A program made the position numbers and the translations under genes. This document shows, piece by piece, positions 9,555-63,168 of a DNA stretch of 64,000 bases. The stretch is from Candidatus Magasanikiibacteriota bacterium (lineage in GTDB: Bacteria; Patescibacteriota; Patescibacteriia; Magasanikbacterales; GWA2-37-8), in the NCBI GenBank assembly GCA_041665405.1, contig JBAYIZ010000006.1, positions 407 through 64,406 on the forward strand. The letters are read 5' to 3'. Every line of letters begins with the position of its first letter. The first letter of the stretch is position 1. The notes beneath the pieces were generated by a model. That model worked only from the letters and a program-made list of their open reading frames with translations, ran no database searches and had not been told where the DNA came from.

Positions 9555-10769
9555 TTAAAAATTTATAAATTCTTTAAACCTATCTTCAAAAATAGCTTGC
9601 CGTGCCTGACGCATAAGCTCCAACATAAAATGCACATTATGGATGGTAGCCAAACGCAAACCAGTAATTTCTTGTGCTACAAATAAATGGTGTAAATAAG
9701 CGCGAGAATAATTTTTGCAAGTTGAACAAGCGCAGTCTTTACTAATTGGAGAAAAATCTTTGATAAACGCGGAGTTTTTTATATTCAAACGACGTTTCGG
9801 GTCCTCGGCAGTCGTAACAAACAACATACCGTGTCGAGCCAAACGAGTTGGTGCTACACAATCAAACATATCCGCACCACCAGCTACCACTTTGAGCAAA
9901 TCCTCTGGATCCAAACCGACACCCATAGTGTATCGTGGCTTATCTTTTGGTAATAATGGAGTAATCCAATCCAAAATATTTTTGGTAGCTTCCATGTTGT
10001 AGCCAATGCTTTCACCGCCAATTGCGATACCATCAAAATCTAAACTGGCAATATATTTAGCCGATTCTTTGCGCAGATCTTCATGATTGGCACCCTGAAT
10101 AATACCAAATAAAAATTGTTTGTATTCTTTCGGCACTGTCATCCCCGACTTGATCGGGGATCTATCATCACTAGATTCCCGCTTCTGCGGGAATGACAAA
10201 CGCTTATGTTCGTCCACACATCTTTTTGCCCAGCGATGAGTGCGATCCATAGCTTCCTTTGTATATTTATAATCTGCATCATCAGGGGTACATTCATCAA
10301 AAGCCATAATAATATCCGCACCAATCTTGTGTTGGCACAAAGTAGCGGACTCTGGTGTAAAACGATGAGTAGAGCCGTCAATATGAGATTGAAATGTCAC
10401 GCCGTCTTCATCTATTTTTACCAATTTACCTTGATCTTTGGTGTCGCTTTTTTCTTTTTGCAATCCTAATGAAAAAACCTGAAAACCACCAGAATCAGTC
10501 AAAATCGCCCGGTCCCAATTCATAAATTTGTGCAAACCACCAGATTGAGCAACCAAATCTTCACCCGGTCTCAAATGCAAATGATAGTTATTGGCCAAGA
10601 TAATTTTTGGGTCCAAAATAGCTAGGTCGTTTTGATCTAGGGTTTTAACTGTGGCCTGTGTGCCAACTGGCATAAAGACCGGAGTTTCAATATCTCCATG
10701 GTCGGTATGCAAAATACCGGCTCTGGCACCAGTTTTTTTATCTTCGTGGATTAGTTCAAAAAATGACAT
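9555..10769 (-). CDS. tgt: tRNA-guanine transglycosylase (queuine tRNA-ribosyltransferase) carrying a 20-aa in-frame repeat-derived insert
   Basis: Tgt hallmarks are present: TPVFMPVGT, LTDSGGFQV, and the zinc site CxCxxC...H (CACSTCKNYSRAYLHH). Confidence 0.93.
   Translation of the reverse strand: MSFFELIHEDKKTGARAGILHTDHGDIETPVFMPVGTQATVKTLDQNDLAILDPKIILANNYHLHLRPGEDLVAQSGGLHKFMNWDRAILTDSGGFQVFSLGLQKEKSDTKDQGKLVKIDEDGVTFQSHIDGSTHRFTPESATLCQHKIGADIIMAFDECTPDDADYKYTKEAMDRTHRWAKRCVDEHKRLSFPQKRESSDDRSPIKSGMTVPKEYKQFLFGIIQGANHEDLRKESAKYIASLDFDGIAIGGESIGYNMEATKNILDWITPLLPKDKPRYTMGVGLDPEDLLKVVAGGADMFDCVAPTRLARHGMLFVTTAEDPKRRLNIKNSAFIKDFSPISKDCACSTCKNYSRAYLHHLFVAQEITGLRLATIHNVHFMLELMRQARQAIFEDRFKEFINF
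10138..10197. repeat. double-hairpin palindromic mini-element (ATTCCCG family) inside tgt
   Basis: Sequence GTCATCCCCGActtgATCGGGGAT...ATTCCCGCttctGCGGGAATGAC is exactly 60 nt. On the minus strand it is translated as SFPQKRESSDDRSPIKSGMT. Confidence 0.8.
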
Positions 10770-11006
10770 ACTAATTATATTTAAGCCAATACTACGCTAT
10801 TTTGCACAAAAAATCAAGACAAACAAAAAACTTCCTATAAGAAGAAGTTTTTTCTATTCTCATGTCGTTAACAACAACAGGAAAATGGATGCCTGCTTTT
10901 TTGTACCGTGAGCGCAGGCGAATCTCACATATTTTCCTTGCGGCGACTAGCCACGCATTAATCACATGCGCAACTTATCAAGCCGAATTGTGTTGGTACG
11001 GCGCGA

Positions 11007-11420
11007 TCAGCGCGCCTTGGGGGCGGCTGCTTCTCGCAGTTCGGCCAGCTTCCTGTCTACCTTTGGGGTGCCGAGGTGTTGCTTGGCCGCGAACACGAGC
11101 TTTGCGCGGGCAGATTGCACCGCCCTGTTCGAAGGACGACGGCCGGGTGGAGTCAAAGCCACCACCGCCTGCAACATTGCCTCCGTCGTCTGCTCGTCAC
11201 CCTGCTTGTACTCCCTGAGCGTGAACAGGACCTTCTCCACCTTCTCGTGGAGATCCCAGGACTCGCGCCAATACGGCCTGTCTTCGCCGGAATGGAACTT
11301 GTCGAGCATGGAGTGAGCCCTCCTCGACCTGAAGTAGCAAAGGACCAACACAAGCATCGACACGATGTTCACCGCAACACTGATACTGTGCCACATAGAA
11401 ATCCCCACTTCCTTCACCAT
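11007..11420 (-). CDS. small single-pass membrane protein encoded in G+C-rich islet 1
   Basis: The frame has G/C-rich third positions. It has an N-terminal TM segment (ISMWHSISVAVNIVSMLVLVLCYF) and a helical charged tail. The start could be ATG 11420, or ATG 11396 (preceded by AAGGAAGTGG). The track start at 11486 is probably an over-extension. Confidence 0.5.
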   Translation of the reverse strand: MVKEVGISMWHSISVAVNIVSMLVLVLCYFRSRRAHSMLDKFHSGEDRPYWRESWDLHEKVEKVLFTLREYKQGDEQTTEAMLQAVVALTPPGRRPSNRAVQSARAKLVFAAKQHLGTPKVDRKLAELREAAAPKAR

Positions 11421-11571
11421 TGCTGACGAAGATGTTAGCTCTCTAGTTGGCGCGGGATGACACATCCACGCCCTTGCGACAAGCAAGCGGCAGCCCAGCT
11501 ACCTCTACTTTTTCCTTACCAAAAGAAAAACTAGCCGTAGCTTGGCCAAAATATATTTCAAAGAACGTGTA

Positions 11572-11600
11572 AATATAGCACAAAACAACAATTTTGTCAA
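11572..11600 (-). promoter_or_regulatory. sigma70-type promoter reading into G+C-rich islet 1
   Basis: Minus strand reads TTGACA-17 nt-TATATT (TTGACAaaattgttgttttgtgcTATATT). Confidence 0.6.
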
Positions 11601-11678
11601 CAATACTGAAATAATGCACCGCAAACATCCAGCGGCTTTTGATTTTCTCTTACAGGCATGTTAAAATGAAAACTCAAT

Positions 11679-13715
11679 ATGATAAATTTTGAACAAGAAC
11701 TCAACCCGCAACAGCTGGACGTCGTGAAAAATGGCGACGGGCCTTGTTTGGTTTTAGCTGGGGCGGGATCGGGGAAAACTCGCACTATTACTTATCGGGT
11801 TGCCTATTTGTTGGAACAAGGTGTTGGCCCAGAAAATATTTTGTTGGTAACTTTTACCAATCGAGCGGCGAATGAAATGATTGAACGGGTAAGAAATTTG
11901 ATGAGTGGGGATTCCCGTTTGCACGGGAATGACATGCCGTGGTCAGGAACATTTCACCACATTGCCAATAAAATTTTACGACACTACGCACCACATTTAG
12001 GATACAAAAATAATTTTACTGTTTTGGATTCCGACGACAGCCAGGCGTTGATAAAATTGTGTATCAAAGAATTTAAAACCACCGAAAAATTTCCTTCGGC
12101 GAAAGTTGTGGGCGCAATTATTAGTTTTGCTCGTAATTCTCAAAAAAGTATTGAAGAAGTAATTGAAGATAAATTTAATAGCTGGTGGCACCTGTCTAGA
12201 ACTATTGGCGATGTCAGCTCACGATACGAACAAAAGAAAAAAGAATCCAACGCAATGGATTTTGATGATCTACTAATTAATTTTGCATTGTTATTAAACA
12301 CCCCAGCAATTCAAGAAAAGTTTTCCAATCAATTCAAATATATTTTGGTAGATGAGTATCAAGACACCAACAAACTACAAGCGAATATTATTGATAAATT
12401 AGCCAAAATACACCGTAATTTGTTGGTAGTTGGTGATGACGCCCAAAGTATTTATTCTTTCCGTGCGGCTGATATAAAAAATATTTTAAATTTTGAAGAA
12501 AAATATTCTGATGCGAAAATTTTTCGTTTGGAAATAAATTATCGTTCTCACCAAGAAATTTTGTCTTTGGCCAATAATGTTATCGCCAACAATCGTCATC
12601 AATATCCAAAAAAATTAAAAGCAGTAAAAGAAAATGGCATAAAACCAAATTTATATCCAAAAAATGATCAATCCGACGAAGCGAGTTTTATTGTAAAAAA
12701 AATAAATGAACTGATTGAACAAGGAACTCCAGAACACAAAATCGCTGTGCTGTTTCGTGCCGCTCATCATTCTCAAATGCTCGAAATGGAATTAGCCAAA
12801 GCAGGAATCGCTTATGATTATCGTGGCGGTTTGCGATTTTTTGAACGCGCTCACATCAAAGATGTTTTGAGTTATCTCAGAATATTAAATAATTTATCTG
12901 ACACCTCTGCGTGGTTGCGTATTCTCCAACACGAAGAAGGAATCGGACCGTCGGCTGCCAATAAAATTATTTCTGCCGTGCAAAAACTAGAAAAAATTGA
13001 TGACATAAAAAATCTTGGGGAAGTTTTAGGTGGAAAAACCCAAACCGGTTTTAATAATTTCTTAAAAATTTTTAATGCTCTCTTGGAATCGTATATTCCA
13101 GAAAGCAGCCCTGGTGATTTAATCCAATCCATTATCAGTTCGAATTATAGCGACTATTTGGAAGCAGAATTCATAGATAGTGATGACCGAAAAAAGGATT
13201 TGGAACAAATGGCCACCTTTGCCACCAAACACAAAAATTTATCTGATTTTTTGGCCGAATCTAGTTTGCAAGAGTCGTTTGCCCACCCGACATCCAACCA
13301 AACACAGACAAACAACCAAAAAAGGTTGGTGCTTTCCACTATTCATCAGGCCAAAGGACTGGAGTGGGAAGCGGTTTTTATAATCAATGTAGCCAACGAC
13401 GCCTTTCCCAACAGTCGTGCTTTGGCCGAAAGTGAAGGTCTGGAAGAAGAACGCCGTTTGTTTTATGTCGCTATTACTCGTGCCAAAAAACACTTAATTT
13501 TGACTTATCCAATGTCAAATGAGGGTTGGGGCTCCTCGCTGGGCGGTCCAAGCTTGTTTTTGTCTGAAATTAGCCAAGATTTGATTGATGACCACTCATT
13601 ATTATCCTATAAAAGCACTGTTTTTGATAAAAATGAAGAAATTCAATATATTAACGAAGATGAACCAATAAATATCCAACCTGGTAGTTTTTTGCGCAGT
13701 ATTGATGACTTATAA
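11679..13715 (+). CDS. UvrD/PcrA/Rep-family ATP-dependent DNA helicase
   Basis: Walker A motif (AGAGSGKTRT), motif Ia (TFTNRAANEM), DEYQDT, motif VI (VAITRAKK). Confidence 0.92.
   Translation: MINFEQELNPQQLDVVKNGDGPCLVLAGAGSGKTRTITYRVAYLLEQGVGPENILLVTFTNRAANEMIERVRNLMSGDSRLHGNDMPWSGTFHHIANKILRHYAPHLGYKNNFTVLDSDDSQALIKLCIKEFKTTEKFPSAKVVGAIISFARNSQKSIEEVIEDKFNSWWHLSRTIGDVSSRYEQKKKESNAMDFDDLLINFALLLNTPAIQEKFSNQFKYILVDEYQDTNKLQANIIDKLAKIHRNLLVVGDDAQSIYSFRAADIKNILNFEEKYSDAKIFRLEINYRSHQEILSLANNVIANNRHQYPKKLKAVKENGIKPNLYPKNDQSDEASFIVKKINELIEQGTPEHKIAVLFRAAHHSQMLEMELAKAGIAYDYRGGLRFFERAHIKDVLSYLRILNNLSDTSAWLRILQHEEGIGPSAANKIISAVQKLEKIDDIKNLGEVLGGKTQTGFNNFLKIFNALLESYIPESSPGDLIQSIISSNYSDYLEAEFIDSDDRKKDLEQMATFATKHKNLSDFLAESSLQESFAHPTSNQTQTNNQKRLVLSTIHQAKGLEWEAVFIINVANDAFPNSRALAESEGLEEERRLFYVAITRAKKHLILTYPMSNEGWGSSLGGPSLFLSEISQDLIDDHSLLSYKSTVFDKNEEIQYINEDEPINIQPGSFLRSIDDL
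11911..11933. repeat. ATTCCCG palindromic mini-element inside the helicase gene
   Basis: ATTCCCGTttgcACGGGAATGAC, translated as (G)DSRLHGND between helicase motifs Ia and Ib. Confidence 0.7.
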
Positions 13716-14210: not shown

Positions 14211-15863
14211 ATGCAACTCGACGACAACAAAATTGAGAAAATTTTGCTTGACGGCAGTTATATTTCGGCGGATGACCTGAAAAAAGCACAACAATACGCC
14301 AAAGAGCATCATGCTACTTCATTGGTTTATTTACAAAACGAAGGGCTTATTAATCGCAATCTTTTGGGACAAGCAATTGCTGAATCACTTAATGTTGATT
14401 ACGCATCACTACCCGCACAACAACCAACCAAAGAACAAGTTTTGAAAATTCCCGAAGATATTGCCAACAAATATCATATTGTTTTATTTAAAGAAACACC
14501 AAAAGAAGTAGTTGTTGCTACCGACGATCCTGCGGCCACAGATTTATCCAAAGCATTAAAACAAATTTTCAAAACTCAAAAAATTTCTCTGGCTTATTCA
14601 TTGCCCGAAGATATTGATACTGCTTTTATTGCTTACCGCAAAACTTTGGAAACTCGTTTTGGTGATATTATAAAAAAACAAGAACACATTGCTCCGGAAA
14701 TTATTGATGAAATTATTGAAGATGCGATTGCCTACCACGCCTCGGATATTCACTTTGAACCACAAAGTAAAGAAGTGGTAATTCGTTTTCGTGTAGACGG
14801 CGTACTCAACGAAGCCGGCCGTATTCCCAAGGAATATTTTGGCAATGTTTTGAATCGTATCAAGGTACAATCACATTTACCGATCGATGAACATTATTCT
14901 GCTCAAGATGGGGCGATGCGTTTTGTCAAAGAAAACATGACGGCTGATTTGCGCGTGTCTATTTTGCCAACCTTGGACGGAGAAAAAGTGGTAATGCGTT
15001 TGTTGTCTCAATATGTGCGTGGTTTCAATTTACCGGATTTAGGATTATCGCCAGAAAATGAAATACTGTTAGAAAAAGCATACAAAAAACCGTTTGGGAT
15101 GATACTCATTACTGGCCCAACTGGCTCTGGAAAGACCACTTCTCTGTATGCACTACTTCGCATTTTGAATACTCCCAATGTAAACATCACCACCATTGAA
15201 GACCCGGTAGAATATCGAGTAGAAGGTATAAACCAAATTCAGGTTAACCCCAAAACCAATCTCACTTTTGCTGGCGGACTGCGTTCGATTGTACGCCAAG
15301 ATCCAGATATTATTTTGGTTGGTGAAATCCGCGACAATGAAACCGCTGAAATTGCCATCAATGCTTCACTCACAGGTCATTTATTATTATCCACTTTCCA
15401 TGCCAATGATTCTGCTACCGCTGTCCCGCGTTTACTCGACATGAAAATTGAACCATTCTTGTTGGCTTCAACTTTAGAATTACTTATCGCCCAGCGTTTG
15501 GTAAGAAAAATTTGTGAACAATGCAAAGTAAGTTCGGTGATAAAACAAATTGATATCAAAAAAACCGTGCCGGAATTAGCGAGAAAATATTTTACCGGCA
15601 AATCATATACTTTTTATAAAGGTAAAGGTTGTAGCGCGTGTGGCAATACTGGTTACAAAGGACGCCAAGCAATTTTTGAATTTATTCCCATCTCTCCGGA
15701 AATGAAAGAATTAATCTTAAAAAATCCTTCCACTCAAGAAATTTGGAAGGTTGCTCGCAAACAAGGATCAAAAACTTTGTTTGAAGATGGTTTAGAAAAA
15801 GTAAAAAACGGCATCACCACATTACAAGAATTATTACGCGTTGCAGAACCACCAAAATTTTAA
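14211..15863 (+). CDS. pilB: type IV pilus assembly ATPase (GspE/PilB family)
   Basis: Walker A (GPTGSGKTT), Asp box, His box, and a tetracysteine motif (CEQC...CSAC). Confidence 0.92.
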   Translation: MQLDDNKIEKILLDGSYISADDLKKAQQYAKEHHATSLVYLQNEGLINRNLLGQAIAESLNVDYASLPAQQPTKEQVLKIPEDIANKYHIVLFKETPKEVVVATDDPAATDLSKALKQIFKTQKISLAYSLPEDIDTAFIAYRKTLETRFGDIIKKQEHIAPEIIDEIIEDAIAYHASDIHFEPQSKEVVIRFRVDGVLNEAGRIPKEYFGNVLNRIKVQSHLPIDEHYSAQDGAMRFVKENMTADLRVSILPTLDGEKVVMRLLSQYVRGFNLPDLGLSPENEILLEKAYKKPFGMILITGPTGSGKTTSLYALLRILNTPNVNITTIEDPVEYRVEGINQIQVNPKTNLTFAGGLRSIVRQDPDIILVGEIRDNETAEIAINASLTGHLLLSTFHANDSATAVPRLLDMKIEPFLLASTLELLIAQRLVRKICEQCKVSSVIKQIDIKKTVPELARKYFTGKSYTFYKGKGCSACGNTGYKGRQAIFEFIPISPEMKELILKNPSTQEIWKVARKQGSKTLFEDGLEKVKNGITTLQELLRVAEPPKF

Positions 15864-25154: not shown

Positions 25155-25240
25155 CAAAGGGTAACTTTTTCGCTTTTTTTGCCCGCGAGGGCAAAAGGAT
25201 GAGCCTCGGCTCATAACCCGCTCAAAAGTAACCCTTTGCT
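25155..25240 (+). ncRNA. candidate structured RNA / terminator-embedded repeat, copy 1
   Basis: Outer stem is GCAAAGGGT.../...ACCCTTTGC. It encloses the conserved core TTTTTCGCTTTTTTTGCCCGCGAGGGCAAAAGGATGAGCCTCGGCTCATAACCCGCTCAAAAG. Related copies are at 38645 and 48340. Confidence 0.5.
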
Positions 25241-38644: not shown

Positions 38645-38739
38645 AAAAAACTTTTATTTTATTTCGCTTTTTTTGCCCGCGAGGGCAAAAGGATGAAGCC
38701 GCGGCTTCATAACCCGCTCAATTAAAATAAAAGTTTTTT
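38645..38739 (+). ncRNA. candidate structured RNA / terminator-embedded repeat, copy 2
   Basis: A 17-bp outer stem (AAAAAACTTTTATTTTA/TAAAATAAAAGTTTTTT) encloses the core TTTCGCTTTTTTTGCCCGCGAGGGCAAAAGGATGAAGCCGCGGCTTCATAACCCGCTCAA. Confidence 0.5.
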
Positions 38740-39020: not shown

Positions 39021-39022
39021 TT

Positions 39023-39069
39023 GTCATTCCCGTGAAAGCTTGTCCCCACGAAAGTGGGGACGGGAATCC
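39023..39069. repeat. nested-hairpin palindromic mini-element (ATTCCCG family), intergenic
   Basis: GTCATTCCCGtgaaagcttGTCCCCACgaaaGTGGGGACGGGAATCC lies between the convergent stops of yidD and the DUF167 gene. Confidence 0.75.
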
Positions 39070-39073
39070 GTTC

Positions 39074-39301
39074 CTAATTTTCAATCTCAATCATTTTATT
39101 TTTGCTCGTGTTGCCGGACACGATTTTTATTTTGCTTTTTGAAATATTAAAATAATCGGCGAGTAATTTTATTAAGGCGTCGTTCGCTTTTCCATCGACG
39201 GGTGGAGCGGTGAGTTTTATTTTTAAAGTGCCATCGGACATTTTTCCGATGACTTCATTTTTTGAAGAGCGGGGGAGGACGCGGATTTTTAATTTTGGCA
39301 T
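39074..39301 (-). CDS. DUF167/YggU-family protein
   Basis: 75 aa. ...LKIKLTAPPVDGKANDALIKLLADYF...I..G..S..K is typical of UPF0235. Confidence 0.8.
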   Translation of the reverse strand: MPKLKIRVLPRSSKNEVIGKMSDGTLKIKLTAPPVDGKANDALIKLLADYFNISKSKIKIVSGNTSKNKMIEIEN

Positions 39302-39431
39302 ATGTTTTACGCTTTTGTAATATGAATTTTCTTGCGCTCAGACTTGCACCGAATTTATATTACTACAGACAGCCTAGTTTGGTTCTCGGTGCTTCAGACA
39401 ATTCGCGCGGCGAAAATTAATATTAAAAAAG

Positions 39432-40280
39432 CTATTTGTTATTCCTGATGTCTTTTAAAATTTGCAAATCTTCGCGGACTTTGTCGTGTTCGGTTTCTAA
39501 GTAGTAATTTATTTTTTGAAGTCGTTTGTTTGTCAACAGAGCCTCAAAACCCGTCTTGCCAATTAGGCCTTCGCCTAAATGTTCATGACGATCTTTGTGT
39601 CCGCCTAGCTCTATTTTGCTGTCGTTGCAGTGAGACATTTTTAGCTTGTCTATACCGATTAGTTGATCAAATTTTTTGAATGTTTCTTCAACTGCTTTTG
39701 GGGTGCGAATGTCATATCCTGAGGCAAAACCATGTTGGGTATCATAGCAGACACCGATATCATATTTTTTTAATTTTTTATGATTTATAATTTCGGCAAT
39801 TTCTTCAAAAGTGTCACCAATAATTGCGCCGGCACCAGCAGAAATTTCTATTAAAAATTGGGCGCTGCCTTTGTAGCCATTTAGCATTTTTTCTAAACCG
39901 TCTACGAGCTGTGTCAGTCCTTCTTTTTCGCCAAGGTCTTTGTAACTACCTAGATGAGCCATAACATACGCCGCGCCAAGTAGAGAAGCGCGTTCGAGCT
40001 CTTCACGAACAACAGTGATTGACCCATGTTTGATTCGTGGGTTGGCACTGGCGAAGTTTATAAAATATGGGGCGTGAACCACCCATTCTTTTTGGTTATA
40101 TTCCTTGCACAAACCTCTGAATTCGTCGGCAAGTTTCTTGTTTAACGGTGCGACAAAACCACCCTGTGGAGAACGGGTAAATATTTGAAAAACTTCACAG
40201 CCAAGAGCGGCCGAGTTTTTTGGGGCGTTGGTTAGTCCGCCAGCGATAGAGACGTGGGCGCCAAAATACATAGACAACAA
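39432..40280 (-). CDS. nfo: deoxyribonuclease IV (AP endonuclease family 2)
   Basis: TIM-barrel Nfo motifs: HAPYFINFAS, HLGSY, and H..D/E metal ligands through the C-terminus. Confidence 0.88.
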   Translation of the reverse strand: MLSMYFGAHVSIAGGLTNAPKNSAALGCEVFQIFTRSPQGGFVAPLNKKLADEFRGLCKEYNQKEWVVHAPYFINFASANPRIKHGSITVVREELERASLLGAAYVMAHLGSYKDLGEKEGLTQLVDGLEKMLNGYKGSAQFLIEISAGAGAIIGDTFEEIAEIINHKKLKKYDIGVCYDTQHGFASGYDIRTPKAVEETFKKFDQLIGIDKLKMSHCNDSKIELGGHKDRHEHLGEGLIGKTGFEALLTNKRLQKINYYLETEHDKVREDLQILKDIRNNK

Positions 40281-44157: not shown

Positions 44158-44271
44158 ATATGTATGATTAAAAATACTTCGCAATATTATCTTAAAACAC
44201 AAAAAAAGTCAATTTTATGGCTGTGGTATTGCTTTTTTGAGGATGTTGGTGTATATTTTTTAAATCCACCC

Positions 44272-44529
44272 GTGGCCAGGTCGTGTTATATAGACACAGC
44301 CTCGGCGACTATAGCGAAAGAGGGGAAACCATGGCGCGAGCCAAACCGGCAACGGACACGTGTTGAGGTACATGTTCGATTCCAGTTCAACCTCAGGCCG
44401 CAACAACGGGCTGAGGAGGCCACGCAGAAGGCCAAGAAGTGGCAGAGGGACAACCCGGGCTGGGGCTGTGATCCCAACCCCACGACGATCGGCAACGGCT
44501 ACGCTACCTTCAGGGCTCGTCGCACCTGA
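44272..44529 (+). pseudogene. G+C-rich islet 3 ORF with unresolved start (possibly frameshifted or a gene fragment)
   Basis: G/C-rich third positions mark this frame from about 44380 to TGA 44527-29 (...QQRAEEATQKAKKWQRDNPGWGCDPNPTTIGNGYATFRARRT). The only SD+ATG (GAGGGG-N6-ATG 44331) is in another frame and stops after 11 codons. The in-frame candidates are GTG 44272, or the AT-rich extension at 44149. Confidence 0.3.
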
Positions 44530-44660
44530 CGACGATCAACCTCTTCGACGCACACCCCCAGTCGAGCACAAGTTGCTCCTGGGGGCGGGGCTTAGATGAA
44601 ATTATCCTTCCTGTCCTAAGTAGAAAAAATATTTTCTTTTTAGGACAAGGATAATTTCTT

Positions 44661-44707: not shown

Positions 44708-44731
44708 GATTCCCGCTTTCGCGGGAATGAC
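44708..44731. repeat. ATTCCCG palindromic mini-element, intergenic
   Basis: GATTCCCGCtttcGCGGGAATGAC, about 20 nt from the hppA stop. Confidence 0.75.
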
Positions 44732-44752
44732 AACACACGAAGAATGGTGTTT

Positions 44753-48339: not shown

Positions 48340-48437
48340 AACATCCCAGACAATGACTTTTTCGCTTTTTTCGACCGCGAGGTCGAAAGGATGAGCCTCG
48401 GCTCATAACCCGCTCAAAAGTAATTGTCTGGGATGTT
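48340..48437 (+). ncRNA. candidate structured RNA / terminator-embedded repeat, copy 3
   Basis: A 15-bp perfect outer stem (AACATCCCAGACAAT/ATTGTCTGGGATGTT) is followed by a T7 run. It encloses the core TTTTTCGCTTTTTTCGACCGCGAGGTCGAAAGGATGAGCCTCGGCTCATAACCCGCTCAAAAG. Confidence 0.55.
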
Positions 48438-48962: not shown

Positions 48963-51638
48963 ATGTCAAAATTTGTAATTATTGATGGGAACGCTATTGT
49001 GCATCGTGCTTATCACGCTTTGCCTCCGATGAACACCAAAGACGGGGTGATGGTGAATGCGGTGTATGGATTTACTTCCATGTTGCTCAAGGTTTGGAAA
49101 GATTTGAGGCCCACGCATTTGTGTGTGAGTTTTGATGTGGCCGGTGGGACTTTTCGTCATGAGAAATTTGAGCAATACAAAGGTACGCGCGTGAAGGCGG
49201 ATCAGGAATTGTATGATCAGATGCCTTTGGTGCATGAAGTGGTGGAGGCGTTTAGTATTCCGATTTATGAAATGAAAGGGTATGAGGCGGATGATGTGAT
49301 TGGAACTGTGGTGCGTAGGATTGAAAACGAAGTGGACGAGGTGTATATTGTGACGGGTGATATGGACACCCTGCAATTGGTGGATGAAAAAATAAAAGTT
49401 TATACTTTGCGCAAAGGCATGAGCGATATTGTGATATATAATCCAGAAGAAGTAAAAAAGCGTTTTGGTTTTGGACCGGAATTGGTAATAGATTACAAAG
49501 CTTTGCGCGGAGATCCTTCGGATAATATTCCGGGGGTGCCTGGAATTGGTGAAAAAACAGCGACGGATTTGATTTTGAAATTTGGTGATTTGAAAGAAAT
49601 ATATAAAGTGGTAAACGCAGAAAAAGATAAAAAGAAAAGTGATTTATTTAGTTCGTCGGTTTTGAATAAATTATCGCAGGGTGAAAAAAGTGCACAGATG
49701 AGTTATGAATTGGCGACGATAGATTGTGCCGTACCGGGTTTGAATTTTAGTTTGGAAAATTGTGCGATGAGTGAATTTGATCATGATAAAATTTTGAAAT
49801 TATTTCAGAAATTTGAGTTTGTGTCTTTGATGAAACGGATTCCTGGGTTTGATAAGTATGATGTGGTGGAACCAGAAAAAACTACGACAGTAAAAAGCAA
49901 GAAAATGGCTGAATTAAATTTTAAAGAACTAGGGAATAAAAGCGAGGCAAAAGAATTGGTGGAGAAAATAAAAAAGAACGGGCAGTTTGCCTGTCGGGCG
50001 GCGATGAGTGGGAAAGATGTTTTGACCAGTGACTTTTTTGGGTTGGTGGTGATTGTGGAAAGTGAAGGGTATTTTGTTAAAAATAATTTGGTGGAAGAAT
50101 TTTTGCCGATTTTTGACGATGAAAAAATTGAATTGGTGGGGCATGATTTGAAACAATTGGTGAAGGTTTTATTATTGCAAAAACAGGAAATAAAAAACTC
50201 TTTGTTTGATGTAATGGTGGGGTCGTATCTGCTCAACCCAGGCAGTCGTGCTCATGATAGTGCCAGTGTGGTGTTGAAAATATTGGATAAAGAATTAAAG
50301 GTGGGTAGTGGGCAAGAAAGTTTATTCGGGGTAGATGCAAAAGCGTTGGCGGCGGAGTTATATTTAATATTACAAACTGTTGAAAAAATTAAAACTGAAT
50401 TGAACAAGACAGATAATTTGGGTTTGTTACAAAAAATAGAAATGCCGTTACTTTTGGTGTTGGCACAGATGGAATTAAATGGGATTGCGGTGGATTTGGA
50501 GATGCTCCAAAAATTATCGGTAGAAGTAAATGATAGTATTAAAAAAGTTTCCAAAAAGATTTTTGATTTAGCCGGAATGGAATTTAATATTTCTTCACCG
50601 TTGCAATTGAGGGAAGTATTATTTGAAAAACTGGATATTCCTGTCGAGGGAATAAAAAAAGGCAAGACCGGTTTATCTACTTCGGCTGAACAATTGGAAA
50701 AAATGCACGGGCTACATCCGATTATTAAAGAAATTGAAATTTATCGTGAGTTGGCTAAATTGCAAAATACTTATGTGGACGTATTACCGACTTTGATTAA
50801 TAAAAAAACAGGACGAATTCACACCACCTTTAATCAGGCGGTGACGGCCACCGGCAGGCTGTCTAGTTCTGAACCGAATTTACAGAACATTCCAATTCGT
50901 ACCGAGATCGGTCGTGAAGTGCGCAAGGCGTTTGTGTCTGAAAAGGGTAACGTGTTGATTAGTGCAGATTACTCACAGATTGAATTGCGAATTGTGGCTT
51001 CGATGGCGCAAGACAAACGGATGATGGAAATTTTTGAAAAAGATTTAGATATTCATAGAGCCACAGCGGCGGCGATCAATGGAGTTCCGCTAGAAGAAGT
51101 CACCAAAGAAATGCGTCGCGCGGCCAAAGAAATTAATTTTGGTGTGTTGTATGGTATGGGAACATACGGTCTAAGTTGGCGCGCGGAAATTTCTCATGCT
51201 CAGGCGAAAGAATTTATCCAAAAATATTTTGAACAATTTAGCGGGGTAAAGCAGTATATAGATCAGACATTGGAATTCACTAAGACAGAAGGATATTGTG
51301 AAACGCTATTTGGGCGCCGAAGATATTTGCCAGAATTGAGATCACAAAATTTTCAGATGCGCAGTGCGGCCGAACGCATGGCGATTAACCACCCTATCCA
51401 AGGCACAGCTGCCGATCTGATCAAGATGGCGATGATTGAAGTGGGAAAAAAATTGAAAGAATATCCAGAGGTAAGAATGCTTTTGCAAGTACACGACGAA
51501 TTGGTGTTAGAAGTGAAAAAAGGTGAAGAAGAAAAGATCGGCAAGATTCTCAAAGAGACGATGGAAAATGTGGTGAAGCTGAGGGTGCCGGTAAAGGTAG
51601 AGGTGAACATCGGACATAGTTGGGGGGAGATGAAATAA
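48963..51638 (+). CDS. polA: DNA polymerase I
   Basis: 5'-nuclease domain, central domain, and family A polymerase motifs (DYSQIELR, RRAAKEINFGVLYG, QVHDELV). Confidence 0.95.
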   Translation: MSKFVIIDGNAIVHRAYHALPPMNTKDGVMVNAVYGFTSMLLKVWKDLRPTHLCVSFDVAGGTFRHEKFEQYKGTRVKADQELYDQMPLVHEVVEAFSIPIYEMKGYEADDVIGTVVRRIENEVDEVYIVTGDMDTLQLVDEKIKVYTLRKGMSDIVIYNPEEVKKRFGFGPELVIDYKALRGDPSDNIPGVPGIGEKTATDLILKFGDLKEIYKVVNAEKDKKKSDLFSSSVLNKLSQGEKSAQMSYELATIDCAVPGLNFSLENCAMSEFDHDKILKLFQKFEFVSLMKRIPGFDKYDVVEPEKTTTVKSKKMAELNFKELGNKSEAKELVEKIKKNGQFACRAAMSGKDVLTSDFFGLVVIVESEGYFVKNNLVEEFLPIFDDEKIELVGHDLKQLVKVLLLQKQEIKNSLFDVMVGSYLLNPGSRAHDSASVVLKILDKELKVGSGQESLFGVDAKALAAELYLILQTVEKIKTELNKTDNLGLLQKIEMPLLLVLAQMELNGIAVDLEMLQKLSVEVNDSIKKVSKKIFDLAGMEFNISSPLQLREVLFEKLDIPVEGIKKGKTGLSTSAEQLEKMHGLHPIIKEIEIYRELAKLQNTYVDVLPTLINKKTGRIHTTFNQAVTATGRLSSSEPNLQNIPIRTEIGREVRKAFVSEKGNVLISADYSQIELRIVASMAQDKRMMEIFEKDLDIHRATAAAINGVPLEEVTKEMRRAAKEINFGVLYGMGTYGLSWRAEISHAQAKEFIQKYFEQFSGVKQYIDQTLEFTKTEGYCETLFGRRRYLPELRSQNFQMRSAAERMAINHPIQGTAADLIKMAMIEVGKKLKEYPEVRMLLQVHDELVLEVKKGEEEKIGKILKETMENVVKLRVPVKVEVNIGHSWGEMK

Positions 51639-51683
51639 AATTAAAAAAATCGACCACACAAAGTAGTCGGTTTTTTTGTTTGT

Positions 51684-53282
51684 TTATTTTTTTATACTTC
51701 TCAACATTATTCTTTTAAAATCTTGCGCAATTTCATAACGCAAGCCTTTTCTATTTAAGTTAACCTTGTTTCTAAGAGTTTCTAAGTATGTTTTATGTTC
51801 TGAACTTGTTAAGTATTCTCGCATGATTTCATCCCTTAATTTTGCCCAATCCTCAGAGTTTTTAAGCCATTGTTTTTCTAGAGGGACACCTAATGTTTTG
51901 TACATTTTTGCTGGATCCATTACGCTATGCATAGTATCATGTTTTCTAAAAAGTTTTGGATTCTCTCGGGCGTTTTTTTCTTTTTCAAACATGTTACTAT
52001 ACATACCAAAATCGATAGTTCCAACGATAGGTGTCCAAATATTTATACGGTAGTTGGTTTGAGGATTTTTTTTCATAAATGTAAGCATGGTCTTCTTTAT
52101 TTCATCTTTTGTATATCGAAAATGTTCGGGTAACCCTAAGATTAGCAAGGTTCTCACCATGAGAAATTTTTTTGCAGAATTAATAAACTCTGTAGCCACT
52201 TCAAGACTATCGCCTTTTGCTAAATCTTTTCTATTGCCGATAACATCTTCTACACCAACGGCAATTTCAATACAGCCAGCTTCAGCCATTTCTTTAAATT
52301 TTCTTAAACCCTCAAACTGCTTGACGCTCATAAAAGCAACCCACCCCATCTTATTTTTATGTTGCTGATTGAAGTGTTTCATAAAATTTATAAAATCTTC
52401 AAAGTGTTTCGGGTTGGCATTTAGTAAGGCATCACGTACAAAAACAAAATCCTTACCTTGTTTATAAAGTTTTTTTATTTCATTTTTGGCTGTGTCAAGA
52501 CAAGACACATATCCACCATAAAAAGAATCACTAGTGCAGAAAGTGCATTTATGAATACATCCGGCGCTAGTAGCTGTCGAACCGGCATTTTTGAAGTGTT
52601 TGTCTAATTCTAAAAAAGGCATTTTATTTATTTGAGAGCCATCGGTAGAAGCCGCTACAGGTATCAATATCTCAAGAGCATTGTTTTCTGTTAGCCGAGG
52701 AAAATTTTTACCAGTTTTTTTAGTGTTTTCAACAATACATAAATTTGTGTTTGTATCCTTTGTTGTATACGCAATTGAGCCTATTTTTTTCAAAGGAACC
52801 CCTAACGATAGAGCCAACATTGGCAATTCTCCTTGTCCGGTACAACAAATATCTATCCCAGTAATTTCTGGGTGTTGTAAAATCCATTTATAATCAAGCG
52901 CAAAATGTTCAGCCCCTCCGATTACTGTTTTTTGAGGATACTTGTTTTTTATTTTACGACACAACTCAAAGGATTCATTTATACTAGTAGACTGACTACT
53001 AATGCCAATAATTTCGGATTGTTGAATAAGATTTTCCATTGCGGACGTTTTTTGGTCTTGAAGATATGCTATGTCCACCGATATGCCAAATTTTTTTAAG
53101 TATCCAGCTATTCTTTTGATGCCGAGATTTTCTAATCTTAAATGATATTCGTCGGCTTCATATTTGGATTCGGTTATGTTGCCGTCAATAAGTAGAACCC
53201 TTTTTCTGGGTAGTTTTTTGTTGAAAGCCATTTTTTGCAGAGCATTCAATGAAATAATTTGTGTTGTTGTCGAAGTTTCCAT
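51684..53282 (-). CDS. B12-binding-domain radical SAM enzyme (class B rSAM)
   Basis: N-terminal Rossmann-like B12-binding region, then CIHKCTFC (CX3CX2C). 532 aa. Confidence 0.75.
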   Translation of the reverse strand: METSTTTQIISLNALQKMAFNKKLPRKRVLLIDGNITESKYEADEYHLRLENLGIKRIAGYLKKFGISVDIAYLQDQKTSAMENLIQQSEIIGISSQSTSINESFELCRKIKNKYPQKTVIGGAEHFALDYKWILQHPEITGIDICCTGQGELPMLALSLGVPLKKIGSIAYTTKDTNTNLCIVENTKKTGKNFPRLTENNALEILIPVAASTDGSQINKMPFLELDKHFKNAGSTATSAGCIHKCTFCTSDSFYGGYVSCLDTAKNEIKKLYKQGKDFVFVRDALLNANPKHFEDFINFMKHFNQQHKNKMGWVAFMSVKQFEGLRKFKEMAEAGCIEIAVGVEDVIGNRKDLAKGDSLEVATEFINSAKKFLMVRTLLILGLPEHFRYTKDEIKKTMLTFMKKNPQTNYRINIWTPIVGTIDFGMYSNMFEKEKNARENPKLFRKHDTMHSVMDPAKMYKTLGVPLEKQWLKNSEDWAKLRDEIMREYLTSSEHKTYLETLRNKVNLNRKGLRYEIAQDFKRIMLRSIKK

Positions 53283-56220: not shown

Positions 56221-56226
56221 TTAAAA

Positions 56227-56261
56227 CAAAAAACCGATTGCAATATGCAGTCGGTTTTTTT
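56227..56261 (+). terminator. conserved terminator shared by the TrmB-like modules (copy 1)
   Basis: AAAAAACCGATTGCaataTGCAGTCGGTTTTTTT. Near-identical copies are at 61129 and 63042. Confidence 0.8.
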
Positions 56262-56269
56262 AGTTTATT

Positions 56270-57910
56270 TTACTCAATAAAAAGATTTTCCGTAGAATAA
56301 TTATTTTTTATTAATTTATCATTTATTAAAACTTTTATAATTTCATCAACCACTGAATTAAAATCATCTGGAATTGTATCAAAGAATTCTATCTTTTTTA
56401 ATGATTCGGTTAATTCGCGCTCAGGTATCCCAACATGAGATGAGGCAATATTTATTACCTCTTTTTCTTGTTTTTTCCATATCGCGACGGATTGATTCCA
56501 CACCTTCTTAATTTTTTCAATCTCTTTGGTTTTTTGTTGTAGTAATTTATTGTTTACAATCAATACATCATATAGGATAGGATAATCGTTTGTGGTTTTT
56601 AAAATATTTATATTTGAAAGTTCAAGCGCTTTTTCAAGCCATGGCTCCCAAATAATTCCAGCTTCAATATTACCCGCGATAATTCCAGCTCCAATTTCAG
56701 AGCATTGCATATCTTTAATTTTTACATCTTTAGAGGTCATCCCTTCTTTTTGGAGAATATATGAGAGAAAAAATTCCGCCACCGATCCTTTTTCGAGTCC
56801 TATGGTTTTACCTTTTAATTCAATTACGGATTTTATATTTGACTGTGCAACTAACGCATCGCCACCGACGGAGCGATTCAATACCTTTACTATTCTAAGA
56901 TCTGTTATTTTTGAGTGTAATTCGATGGCTTTATCTAGGGTAACATTTATTGCGTCTAGCTTTCCTTGCTCCCACAGCTCAACTTTTTTCTTGTTATCTT
57001 CAAAATTGATTTGTTCCACATCAAGCGACTCGTCGATAAACAGACCGCTATCTTTTGCATAGTAAAGGGGGGTGTTTCCAGACCAAATATATAATCCCAT
57101 TTTGAAAACATCAGTATCAGTAACAATCCCTTCTTCCAAGCTCGCCTTGATTGATTCTGAACGAATAATGTAACTGATGAACTTTTTTAGTTTTATAAAA
57201 TCTTCATGGAATCTGATTTCAGGTTTTCGTGGTCGTTTGATATTTACTTTTACTACCTGTTTGACAGTTCCTGGATTTAGTCCTAAGACAATAATTCTAT
57301 CCGCTAAGTATATTGCTTCATCAATGTCATGGGTGACTAAAATCATTGTTTTTTGTTCTTCTTCCCATAGTCTTGCTAAAAATTCTTGCATTTGAGATCT
57401 CGTTTGTACATCAAGAGCGCCAAAAGGTTCGTCAAATGCAATTAGGTCAGTCTGTTGTGCTATTGCTCTGGCAATAGCGATTCTTTGTTGCATGCCTCCT
57501 GAAAGCTTGTTGGGGAAATAATCTTTGACCTTGTAAAGGCCAACTCGTTTAAGTAATTTGTTAGTTTCAGTACGTACTTCAGTCTCAGACATATTTTTAC
57601 CGTAAAATCCAATGGCAATATTTTCGAAAACATTCAACCAAGGAAAATTAGAGTATTGCTGAGAAACTAATGCAATTCTATTATTTTCTAAATATTTGGA
57701 GCTGTCTAAACCATTGATTTTTATATTTCCTTCGAATACAGTGTCCAAACCTGTTACGCATTTTAAAATAGTGCTTTTACCTGAGCCGCTTGGGCCAACT
57801 ATACACACTATCTCCCCCTTTTTTATATCAAAAGAGATATCATTTATTGCGATAAAAGATTTATTTTCGCGATCATAATAATGTTTAGTTAGTTTGTGGA
57901 CTTCAATCAT
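56270..57910 (-). CDS. ABC transporter ATPase (NitT/TauT-type) fused to a C-terminal periplasmic-binding-protein-like domain
   Basis: An internal ATG at 57910 gives MIEVHKLTKHY... Walker A GPSGSGKST, signature LSGGMQQR, Walker B LIAFDEP. About 300 further aa resemble an NMT1/SsuA-like fold. Confidence 0.8.
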   Translation of the reverse strand: MIEVHKLTKHYYDRENKSFIAINDISFDIKKGEIVCIVGPSGSGKSTILKCVTGLDTVFEGNIKINGLDSSKYLENNRIALVSQQYSNFPWLNVFENIAIGFYGKNMSETEVRTETNKLLKRVGLYKVKDYFPNKLSGGMQQRIAIARAIAQQTDLIAFDEPFGALDVQTRSQMQEFLARLWEEEQKTMILVTHDIDEAIYLADRIIVLGLNPGTVKQVVKVNIKRPRKPEIRFHEDFIKLKKFISYIIRSESIKASLEEGIVTDTDVFKMGLYIWSGNTPLYYAKDSGLFIDESLDVEQINFEDNKKKVELWEQGKLDAINVTLDKAIELHSKITDLRIVKVLNRSVGGDALVAQSNIKSVIELKGKTIGLEKGSVAEFFLSYILQKEGMTSKDVKIKDMQCSEIGAGIIAGNIEAGIIWEPWLEKALELSNINILKTTNDYPILYDVLIVNNKLLQQKTKEIEKIKKVWNQSVAIWKKQEKEVINIASSHVGIPERELTESLKKIEFFDTIPDDFNSVVDEIIKVLINDKLIKNNYSTENLFIE

Positions 57911-61118: not shown

Positions 61119-61128
61119 AATTTAAAAA

Positions 61129-61162
61129 CAAAAAACCGATTGCAGATTGCAGTCGGTTTTTT
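61129..61162 (+). terminator. conserved TrmB-module terminator (copy 2)
   Basis: AAAAAACCGATTGCagatTGCAGTCGGTTTTTTG. Confidence 0.8.
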
Positions 61163-61308
61163 GATAACTTCTTGAGCTCAACAAGATGTTGGAGTGAATG
61201 AGCGGTCACTACCAGCCGCGTGACTTTTTGTTTTACCGGTAGTCACAAACCGGATGATCCCAGACCCCTCATCAGCGGACCATTGAATTGTCCTGAAACT
61301 TTGCACCT

Positions 61309-63031: not shown

Positions 63032-63041
63032 CACTAAGAAC

Positions 63042-63075
63042 AAAAAACCGATTGCGATATGCAGTCGGTTTTTTA
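63042..63075 (+). terminator. conserved TrmB-module terminator (copy 3)
   Basis: AAAAAACCGATTGCgataTGCAGTCGGTTTTTTA. Confidence 0.8.
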
Positions 63076-63168
63076 ATTACTTCTTGAACCAAAATGATTT
63101 AGTTCGAAAAGTAGCTGCGCGTCTTTTTGACCGGGACGCGCAACCGGGTGAGAGGGTGGAACCGGACG

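Follow-up and report, generated by a model that had tools for sequence, protein, structure and literature searches.

An in-frame doublet of SRM-type hairpins in tgt of a Magasanikbacteria relative, a probable gene-less derivative of an ssn cassette

The tgt gene on a 64,000-nt stretch of contig JBAYIZ010000006.1 (the whole stretch is called the window here), from a relative of the Magasanikbacteria, carries within its reading frame a palindromic element of 60 nt, and the locus raises the question of what this element is and how it came to lie inside a gene for tRNA guanosine(34) transglycosylase (Tgt). An earlier note on this DNA had described a double hairpin that is read through in frame, and the letters, the translation of the open reading frame (ORF), and folding all confirmed that description. 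What the note missed is that two Ssn-related motifs (SRMs) are joined head to head in the element; such repeats are tied to a GIY-YIG nuclease family of the lineage. We consider it probable, at about 0.75, that the element is a non-autonomous SRM doublet, similar to a miniature inverted-repeat transposable element (MITE) or a REPIN, and a gene-less derivative of an SRM-ssn-SRM cassette. The repeat family, its nuclease, and in-frame palindromic inserts as a phenomenon have already been published; new are the host phylum, the tight doublet form, and the repeated residence in essential genes.

The element in tgt and its repeat family

The host gene, the element, and the parts of the element are laid out as follows.

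9555 to 10769, minus strand: tgt, tRNA guanosine(34) transglycosylase, 404 aa (TIGR00430, E=6e-149), in which the element makes up residues 191-210.
10137 to 10198, no strand assigned: the whole element, which measures 62 nt when its T/A ends are counted; two hairpin units of the SRM/NTS type are joined head to head as a doublet, TGTCAT ends outward.
10137 to 10162, plus strand (antisense to tgt): left SRM unit TGTCATCCCCGActtgATCGGGGATC, an exact match to the published SRM search pattern.
10163 to 10173, no strand assigned: spacer TATCATCACTA, 11 nt, between the units, coding for part of SSDDR.
10174 to 10198, minus strand (the tgt sense strand): right SRM unit TGTCATTCCCGCagaaGCGGGAATC, which equals the Neisseria NTS consensus at 25 of 27 positions.

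The core from GTCAT to ATGAC spans 10138-10197, exactly 60 nt, and the element reads T-GTCAT-CCCCGA-cttg-ATCGGGG-ATC-tatcatcacta-GAT-TCCCGC-ttct-GCGGGA-ATGAC-A. Its two inverted units, ~26 nt apiece, each consist of TGTCAT, an 8-bp stem, and ATC. In the left unit, positions 10141-10148 pair with 10154-10161 around a loop at 10149-10153, and in the right unit 10175-10182 pair with 10187-10194 around a loop at 10183-10186. Both hairpins were predicted on either DNA strand (z = -6.3 and -5.9), and none of 200 shuffled sequences folded equally well. The local G+C richness that had been remarked on was found as well, with the element at 53%, the remainder of tgt at 39%, and the window as a whole at 38%. 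The termini are inverted repeats of the kind seen in MITEs (TGTCATYCCCG...CGGGRATGACA), and the ORF at 9555-10769 (minus strand, 404 aa) translates the element as ...HKRL-SFPQKRESSDDRSPIKSGMT-VPKEYKQFLFGIIQG.

The window holds five SRM units at four loci, of which two units lie in tgt, one is in frame in uvrD/pcrA, and two are intergenic. Those outside tgt are listed below.

11910 to 11934, minus strand: single SRM unit TGTCATTCCCGTgcaaACGGGAATC, in frame in uvrD/pcrA (11679-13715, plus strand) and read as DSRLHGND.
39022 to 39068, plus strand: SRM unit whose loop encloses a second hairpin, TCCCCACgaaaGTGGGGA; intergenic, between convergent yidD and DUF167 genes.
44708 to 44732, minus strand: SRM unit TGTCATTCCCGCgaaaGCGGGAATC; intergenic, 3' of the H+-PPase gene, adjoining a terminator-like hairpin.

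The recurrence of the motif had been proposed at the three loci outside tgt, with a spacing of ATTCCCG-N4-CGGGAAT. The spacing was misread; the actual motif is ATTCCCG-N6-CGGGAAT, which equals ATTCCCGC-N4-GCGGGAAT, and it was perfect at 10175, 11911, and 44709 (0.23 occurrences expected by chance). The longer form TGTCATYCCCG-N6-CGGGRATC occurred three times in the window versus 0.00 expected. Two of the three proposed recurrences thus hold at full identity, and at 39023 a variant copy has a nested hairpin (GTCATTCCCG-tgaaagcttg-TCCCCACgaaaGTGGGGA-CGGGAATC). Hits with two mismatches at 15684 and 49527 appeared chance-like, and no integrase, transposase, or prophage genes adjoined any of the window copies.

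Previous work on Neisseria places these features in a known family. The dRS3 sequence, ATTCCC-N8-GGGAAT, is embedded in a 28-nt oriented hairpin termed NTS, CGTCATTCCCGCGMAVGCGGGAATCYRG (PMC11893778), and NTS-like SRMs have been found across many phyla, with no mention of Patescibacteria (Chenal et al. 2025; PMC11893778). SsnA, a 94-aa single-domain GIY-YIG protein, binds SRMs as single-stranded DNA only and cuts a few nucleotides upstream; cutting depends most on what lies upstream of the palindrome, binding most on the C that directly follows it, and the hairpin loop is dispensable, its identity not being needed for cleavage (PMC11893778). The ssn genes themselves (cd10448 GIY-YIG) are typically flanked by SRMs (PMC11893778). 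All five units in the window start with TGTCAT, in agreement with the published leader HGTCWY, and continue with an 8-bp stem and ATC. Every stem is perfect over 8 bp, the length of the NTS palindrome ATTCCCGC-N4-GCGGGAAT, and every unit ends in ...GGRAT-C, that is, with a cytosine directly 3' of the palindrome. The agreement of the right tgt unit with NTS at 25 of 27 positions leaves mismatches in the loop only, and the 44708 unit also agrees at 25 of 27 (0.00 expected in either case). The left tgt, uvrD, and 44708 units fitted the degenerate SRM pattern, as published, without a mismatch; the long loop of the nested 39022 unit put that unit outside the pattern. The exact 20-bp dRS3 core was present in the right tgt, uvrD, and 44708 units, the left tgt unit having ATCCCC/GGGGAT, and the likening of the ATTCCC-N8-GGGAAT core to dRS3-type repeats was accordingly upheld by the right unit. 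A search of the window against Rfam gave nothing at the element, the only gathering-level matches being two tRNAs. By every sequence criterion open to testing, the element belongs to the SRM/NTS/dRS3 repeat family.

The identity of the host protein is clear from matches to PDB Tgt structures at 3e-96 and from an ortholog alignment in which the Zn-site Cys/His and catalytic Asp columns were invariant. The NCBIfam Tgt model, TIGR00430, aligned as two pieces (4-191 and 214-402), with residues 192-213 skipped. The nearest ortholog, P0001 (loci L001 and L002), is 94% identical and reads ...EHNK-NTSYHG-YKQ at the insert site, where the window protein reads ...EHKRL-(20 aa)-VPKE-YKQ; RL, the 20 residues, and VPKE thus replace the six residues NTSYHG, so that the ortholog comparison proposed earlier came out in favor of an insertion. 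An NTSYHG-like sequence is the state of more distant Tgt orthologs too, and the Zymomonas mobilis (Z. mobilis) protein has no counterpart of the insert. A search of genome contigs with Tgt yielded almost exclusively Firmicutes and no patescibacterial DNA. A partial Tgt from a JGI collection (P0002, 99% identical) has the identical 20-residue insert, and the window contig is from an ENA assembly; since a second source carries the insert, it is not an assembly artefact. Relative to its nearest ortholog, the doublet is, by this alignment, an insertion.

The suggestion that the insert is tolerated in a surface loop was borne out by an AlphaFold model (mean pLDDT 85), in which residues 193-218 form a coil with pLDDT values of ~46-64 between a helix (167-192) and a strand (219-225). 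The model thus supports placement of the insert in a tolerant, predicted disordered helix-to-strand loop of the Tgt (beta/alpha)8 barrel. In TIM barrels of this kind, helix-to-strand loops lie on the face opposite the catalytic face, and because of this general geometry the insert would be on the noncatalytic face of Tgt. Among 121 patescibacterial Tgt orthologs, inserts of at least 8 aa were present at the window hotspot in ~24 cases, at a second hotspot in 14, and at a third in 4, and many of these inserts showed the telltale peptides VILS..., VIP..., ...LGMT, or ...GND. In L088, a doublet of the CCCG type lies in tgt at another hotspot (following GLQKEK), where it is read as VIPAKAGIQTLDSRLHGND, and uvrD contains a further one. 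No NCBIfam model, RPE (Rickettsia palindromic element) or other, matched the insert peptide or comparable inserts at E<=10.

As a separate observation, three of the orthologs (P0037, P0054, and P0117) have other recurrent insert peptides, ...PLTPPFKKEGDALPPLMKRGT... and SPNPSLDKRGVALPPLTKRGT, at two hotspots (alignment A1, columns ~440-470 and 300-330). These peptides suggest a further family of palindromic repeats, unrelated to the SRMs, whose copies are likewise read through within patescibacterial genes.

Doublets and ssn cassettes in related genomes

The arrangement in tgt recurs elsewhere. A metagenome scan with the pattern GTCATYCCCG-N6-CGGGRATC, N2-20, GATYCCCG-N6-CGGGRATGAC returned at least 120 stretches with outward doublets, and spacers of 2-20 nt were recorded in 82 metagenomic doublets. 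On viral contigs, eight outward doublets were found versus no inward ones, the latter even with a looser pattern, along with 16 tandem pairs in the same orientation. By these counts, the outward doublet is a preferred, nonrandom arrangement. In low-GC metagenomic contigs, CCCG-type doublets were also in frame in LigA, DNA polymerase I, an ATP-grasp enzyme, a GT9 glycosyltransferase, and a TPR protein, and the metagenomic doublets agreed with the earlier statement that peptides of the SFPRKRES type are the usual read-through products. We considered the possibility that doublets are selected for lengths divisible by 3, and this was rejected, as only 15 of 82 had such a length (no enrichment) and most were intergenic. 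Therefore, the DNA element is primary, and only in-frame, stop-free copies survive inside genes.

The host lineage was identified from the window nfo, DUF167, tig, and dnaA genes, which are 66-73% identical to those of Candidatus (Ca.) Magasanikbacteria RIFOXYC2_FULL_42 and in the same local gene order, and from the best named Tgt matches, which belong to Magasanikbacteria or to the "Patescibacteria group." The host is, from these similarities, a relative of the Magasanikbacteria within the Patescibacteria. The ssn gene was sought in the window and in loci L003, L084, and L239 with consensus sequences and 30 real proteins, and none was found; the queries included a consensus of small GIY-YIG proteins (75 to 83% identical to thousands of PF01541 proteins) and a real Magasanikbacteria protein encoded beside a doublet. 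A small GIY-YIG protein was also encoded in 4 of 80 retrieved doublet loci. The Ssn-like GIY-YIG homologs of 96 aa carry the NCBI names Magasanikbacteria, Parcubacteria, Minisyncoccia, Gracilibacteria, and Absconditicoccaceae.

One of the four doublet loci with a GIY-YIG gene is L141, a 222-kb contig assigned by NCBI to Ca. Magasanikbacteria; its JGI sample also yielded L001, the tgt allele with the empty site. Its ssn gene (96 aa) is bracketed by TGTCATTCCGAGCGAAGCCGAGGAATCC and GGATTCCTCGGCTTCGCTCGGAATGACA, with GTCAT outward. In three further patescibacterial ssn loci (L210, L211/L212, and L213), outward TGTCAT hairpins flank the gene in all cases, the inner ends of the cassettes are conserved (...GGATCCCTTA and TTAAGGGAT...), and the ssn stop codon overlaps the right SRM unit. 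The ends common to L141, L210, L211, and L213 are TGTCAT...GGATCCCTT at the left and AAGGGAT...ATGACA at the right. These comparisons indicate that the end geometry of the tgt doublet, with GTCAT outward, is that which flanks the 96-aa ssn genes of Magasanikbacteria and other Patescibacteria. A link between doublets and ssn was also seen on contig_21410 (255 kb, patescibacterial), where ssn is flanked by TGTCATYCTGAG-type units and the same TGTCATYCTGAG-type variant forms in-frame doublets in tgt (at the EHxKL/xxKQ hotspot, as in the window), uvrB, and uvrD. A strict match of the SRM variant to the flanks of a genome's own ssn gene was considered and rejected, since L141 has a CCCG-type doublet and CCGAG-type ssn flanks.

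One of the cassette sites has a syntenic counterpart in the window.

39302 to 39431, no strand assigned: empty ssn site, 130 bp long, which separates nfo (AP endonuclease 2, 39432-40280, minus strand) from DUF167 (39074-39301, minus strand).

The same gap is occupied by an SRM-flanked ssn cassette in the Magasanikbacteria loci L210 (9872-10330), L211, and L212. Since the cassette is present in these loci but not in the window, it is a presence/absence polymorphism in the candidate lineage.

The age of the inserts can be judged in part from related genomes. In L087 (Tgt 80% identical), the uvrD unit occupies the site and has the orientation seen in the window, and L088 has GMKQKL at this position. 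The window and L087 units differ in the loop and by a compensatory change from T-A to C-G, both retaining perfect 8-bp stems; on this comparison, the uvrD hairpin has been kept over time. At the tgt hotspot, L086 and L087 have the CCGAG-type variant GGATTCCTCGGTTTCGCTCGGAATGAC, the one that flanks ssn in L141.

Several observations on these loci stand apart from the question of the tgt doublet. In L141 (1990-2440), an imperfect direct repeat of ~34 nt, AATTTATACAAATTAT...(G/T)TTCAC, flanks the SRM-ssn-SRM cassette, one copy ending at the left TGTCAT and the other beginning 3 nt past the right ATGACA; such a repeat could reflect a long duplication of the target, or a target that was itself repeated. 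In L087 (9520-10050), a G+C-rich segment of 480 bp just 5' of tgt lies between the inverted SRM units TGTCATTCCCGCAAAAGCGGGAATC and GATTCCCGCTTTCGCGGGAATAAC and holds an ORF that gave no Pfam match; it looks like putative non-ssn cargo between SRM ends. Finally, the contig upstream of the window start (L239, 13725-14720) has a gene with a weak LAGLIDADG_3 match; LAGLIDADG homing endonucleases are typical of rRNA insertions in bacteria of the Candidate Phyla Radiation (CPR).

Origin of the doublet

The reading that we prefer is that the doublet would represent both ends of an SRM-ssn-SRM cassette minus the gene. It would have arrived in tgt via the process by which SRMs spread, the likeliest being that Ssn nicks single-stranded DNA and that repair or recombination follows, and it would have persisted there with a 20-residue disordered loop that is probably harmless to Tgt at this position. 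The peptide would be a neutral passenger, its sequence set by the DNA palindrome and not by selection at the protein level, and each strand would keep one Ssn site whenever the gene is single-stranded, as in replication or transformation. The likeness to the SRM/NTS repeats and SsnA comprises the GTCAT leader, the 8-bp palindrome of the CCCGC/GCGGG type, the 4-nt loop, the C after the palindrome, the presence in multiple copies, and, in related genomes, units that flank a single-domain GIY-YIG gene of ~95 aa on both sides. The differences are that the tgt element is a tight in-frame doublet in an essential gene whereas the published repeats surround genes (PMC11893778), and that the patescibacterial host represents a new phylum. 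With MITEs such as the Correia elements of Neisseria, the element has in common that it is short, gene-less, and multicopy, with terminal inverted repeats and the capacity to fuse in frame with host ORFs; unlike them, it lacks a target-site duplication, and its presumed parent is not a classical insertion sequence with a DDE transposase.

A number of points weigh against this origin. The insertion is not clean, as ~22 nt of empty-site sequence are replaced by ~82 nt, and by comparison with the empty-site ortholog no target-site duplication was found, the flanks AAGCGTT and GTGCCG having no direct repeat. By pattern search and tblastn, the ssn gene was absent from contig positions 1-77450 of 97589 (the window together with L239 and L084), and the syntenic nfo-DUF167 site of the window is without it. 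SRM density is modest, since the 64 kb of the window hold five units and the 9 kb that follow hold none. The right tgt unit departs from the SRM pattern, in the loop (AGAA) only, and translation of the insert is deduced solely from the open frame. SsnA is a single-strand cutter with no known joining activity (PMC11893778), Ssn is not known to mobilize SRMs, the mechanism by which doublet and cassette would move is a proposed one, and the two predicted Ssn cut sites are on opposite strands, unlike the situation in IS200/IS605. In addition, the insert-bearing loci L086, L087, and L214 share ...KKL / ...MT-xP flanks with the window, and one old insertion with hairpin turnover would fit these flanks as well as repeated or recent insertion. 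In the first case the hairpins would have been overwritten by whichever variant is now active; in the second, insertion would have recurred at a favored site.

The rivals to a derivation from an ssn cassette must account for the same observations. A pair of inverted extragenic palindromes of the REP/REPIN kind, mobilized by a RAYT (Y1, IS200/IS605-like) transposase, would have much the same architecture, namely, two inverted hairpin units with a short spacer, composite and non-autonomous, together with a small protein gene flanked by the same hairpins, and a parallel between SRMs and REP/REPIN was indeed drawn in the Ssn study (PMC11893778). The tgt units nevertheless match NTS at 25 of 27 positions and the gene flanked in this lineage encodes a GIY-YIG nuclease and not a Y1 transposase. 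RAYT-associated REPs carry a GTAG-type tetranucleotide, and the leader here is GTCAT. REPs are, moreover, extragenic by definition, and no Y1_Tnp was present in the Pfam lists of L003, L084, and L239, although the window was not exhaustively scanned for RAYT. We regard a REPIN/BIME origin as quite improbable. Only slightly better is the standing of an RPE family member that had spread to Patescibacteria, which we consider very unlikely. RPEs are palindromic repeats that lie in frame in unrelated housekeeping genes in a fold-compatible manner (PMC10969869), tolerated as an extra surface peptide as in Tgt, and Rickettsia is among the SRM-rich genera (PMC11893778); yet RPEs are ~150 bp long and form ten families, within each of which the encoded peptide is conserved (PMC10969869), whereas the present element has 60 nt and another host and gave no NCBIfam match at the threshold stated above. 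The comparison with RPEs drawn in the earlier note therefore stands as an analogy in behavior and not as homology, no sequence similarity having been demonstrated.

Equally unlikely, in our estimation, is adaptation at the protein level, with a lineage-specific Tgt loop selected for contact with a partner or with tRNA and palindromy as a secondary property. The open frame and the concentration of inserts at one hotspot (~24 of 121 orthologs) would be expected on that basis, but a 94%-identical ortholog does without the insert, the hotspot inserts are unrelated in sequence and match the hairpin variant of their own genome, copies of the DNA motif lie between genes and in uvrD as well, the modeled coil is of low confidence, and doublet lengths show no excess of multiples of 3. 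More remote still is an immobile attachment or recombination site for a site-specific recombinase. Here the precedent is dRS3, a reported target of a phage recombinase (filamentous prophage, Neisseria; PMC11893778), and the 16 tandem SRM pairs were in prophage-type viral contigs; the dRS3 likeness extends to the perfect core in the right tgt, uvrD, and 44708 units and not to the left unit (ATCCCC...GGGGAT). However, dRS3 marks variable regions and prophage integration sites in Neisseria, a context with no equivalent here, where the window copies are free of adjacent integrase, transposase, and prophage genes, and integration inside an essential gene would kill that gene. A chance palindrome or an assembly artefact, for which short length and nothing else speaks, has already been refuted by the three to five copies found versus 0.00 to 0.23 expected, by the shuffling result, and by the second source of the insert.

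A derivation from SRM-ssn-SRM cassettes may be taken a step further, and we put this forward tentatively, as a possibility with perhaps less in its favor than against it by a wide measure: cassettes and gene-less doublets might constitute a distinct mobile class, driven by a GIY-YIG single-strand nuclease and not by a transposase, that colonizes loops of essential genes and is renewed there by homing-like gene conversion. Homing-like renewal would explain the differing yet perfect hairpins at orthologous sites, the compensatory stem changes, and the replacement of target sequence without duplication. The colonized genes that may be named for the Patescibacteria under such nuclease-driven spread are tgt, uvrD, uvrB, ligA, and polA, all of DNA or RNA metabolism. 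If it were true, intragenic hairpins could be Ssn-controlled checkpoints on incoming single-stranded DNA in naturally competent, genome-reduced bacteria.

Other repeats and significance

Besides the SRM units, the window contains further repeats and G+C-rich noncoding stretches. A conserved core of ~60 nt, TTCGCTTTTTTTGCCCGCGAGGGCAAAAGGATGAGCCTCGGCTCATAACCCGCTCAA, was found in intergenic spacers at window positions 25164-25231, 38658-38725, and 48356-48423, as well as at L001:5499-5558 and L087:4673-4729; its locations are rpsG-fusA (in two genomes), rnpA-yidD, and 3' of tRNA-Cys. RNAalifold predicted a three-way junction with two conserved hairpins and conserved junction bases, and the closing stem differs in sequence in each copy with pairing kept, compensatory changes being present in 15 of 33 pairs. 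No Rfam family matched this core, which is a candidate for a new small structured RNA or for a second kind of mobile hairpin element. A terminator-like hairpin, AAAAAACCGATTGCnnATTGCAGTCGGTTTTTT, is present in four copies (51637-51689, 56221-56273, 61123-61175, and 63035-63087) amid a cluster of TrmB-family regulator paralogs and an ABC transporter.

Two of the SRM loci have G+C-rich noncoding stretches nearby, and these showed no mutual similarity, nor any match in Pfam or Rfam. Between tig and the H+-PPase gene, adjoining the 44708 SRM, ~350 nt of noncoding DNA (44255-44605) have 50% G+C in a 38% genome, and folding of the minus strand gave z=-4.7. Searches for Rfam and Pfam families and for tRNA/tmRNA returned nothing here; the stretch could be a housekeeping RNA that has diverged, or a fragment of foreign origin. 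The tgt-uvrD gap (10780-11680; 900 bp, 49% G+C) contains only overlapping ORFs of odd composition and gave no Pfam or Rfam match; the sister strain L001 has merely ~90 bp upstream of tgt versus the 900-bp gap of the window.

The doublet in tgt extends the recently described Ssn/SRM system to the CPR and places its hairpins, as tight doublets in frame, inside essential genes and not only around genes, a behavior for which RPEs are well known. Such inserts explain many odd length variants, and the peptides of the SFPRKRES, VIPAKAGIQ, and DSRLRGND types, in patescibacterial proteins, and they should be counted as repeat-derived in annotation and structure prediction. The 94%-identical tgt alleles with and without the insert and the occupied and empty states of the nfo-DUF167 site provide natural test substrates for the role of Ssn outside Neisseria and for repeat mobilization.

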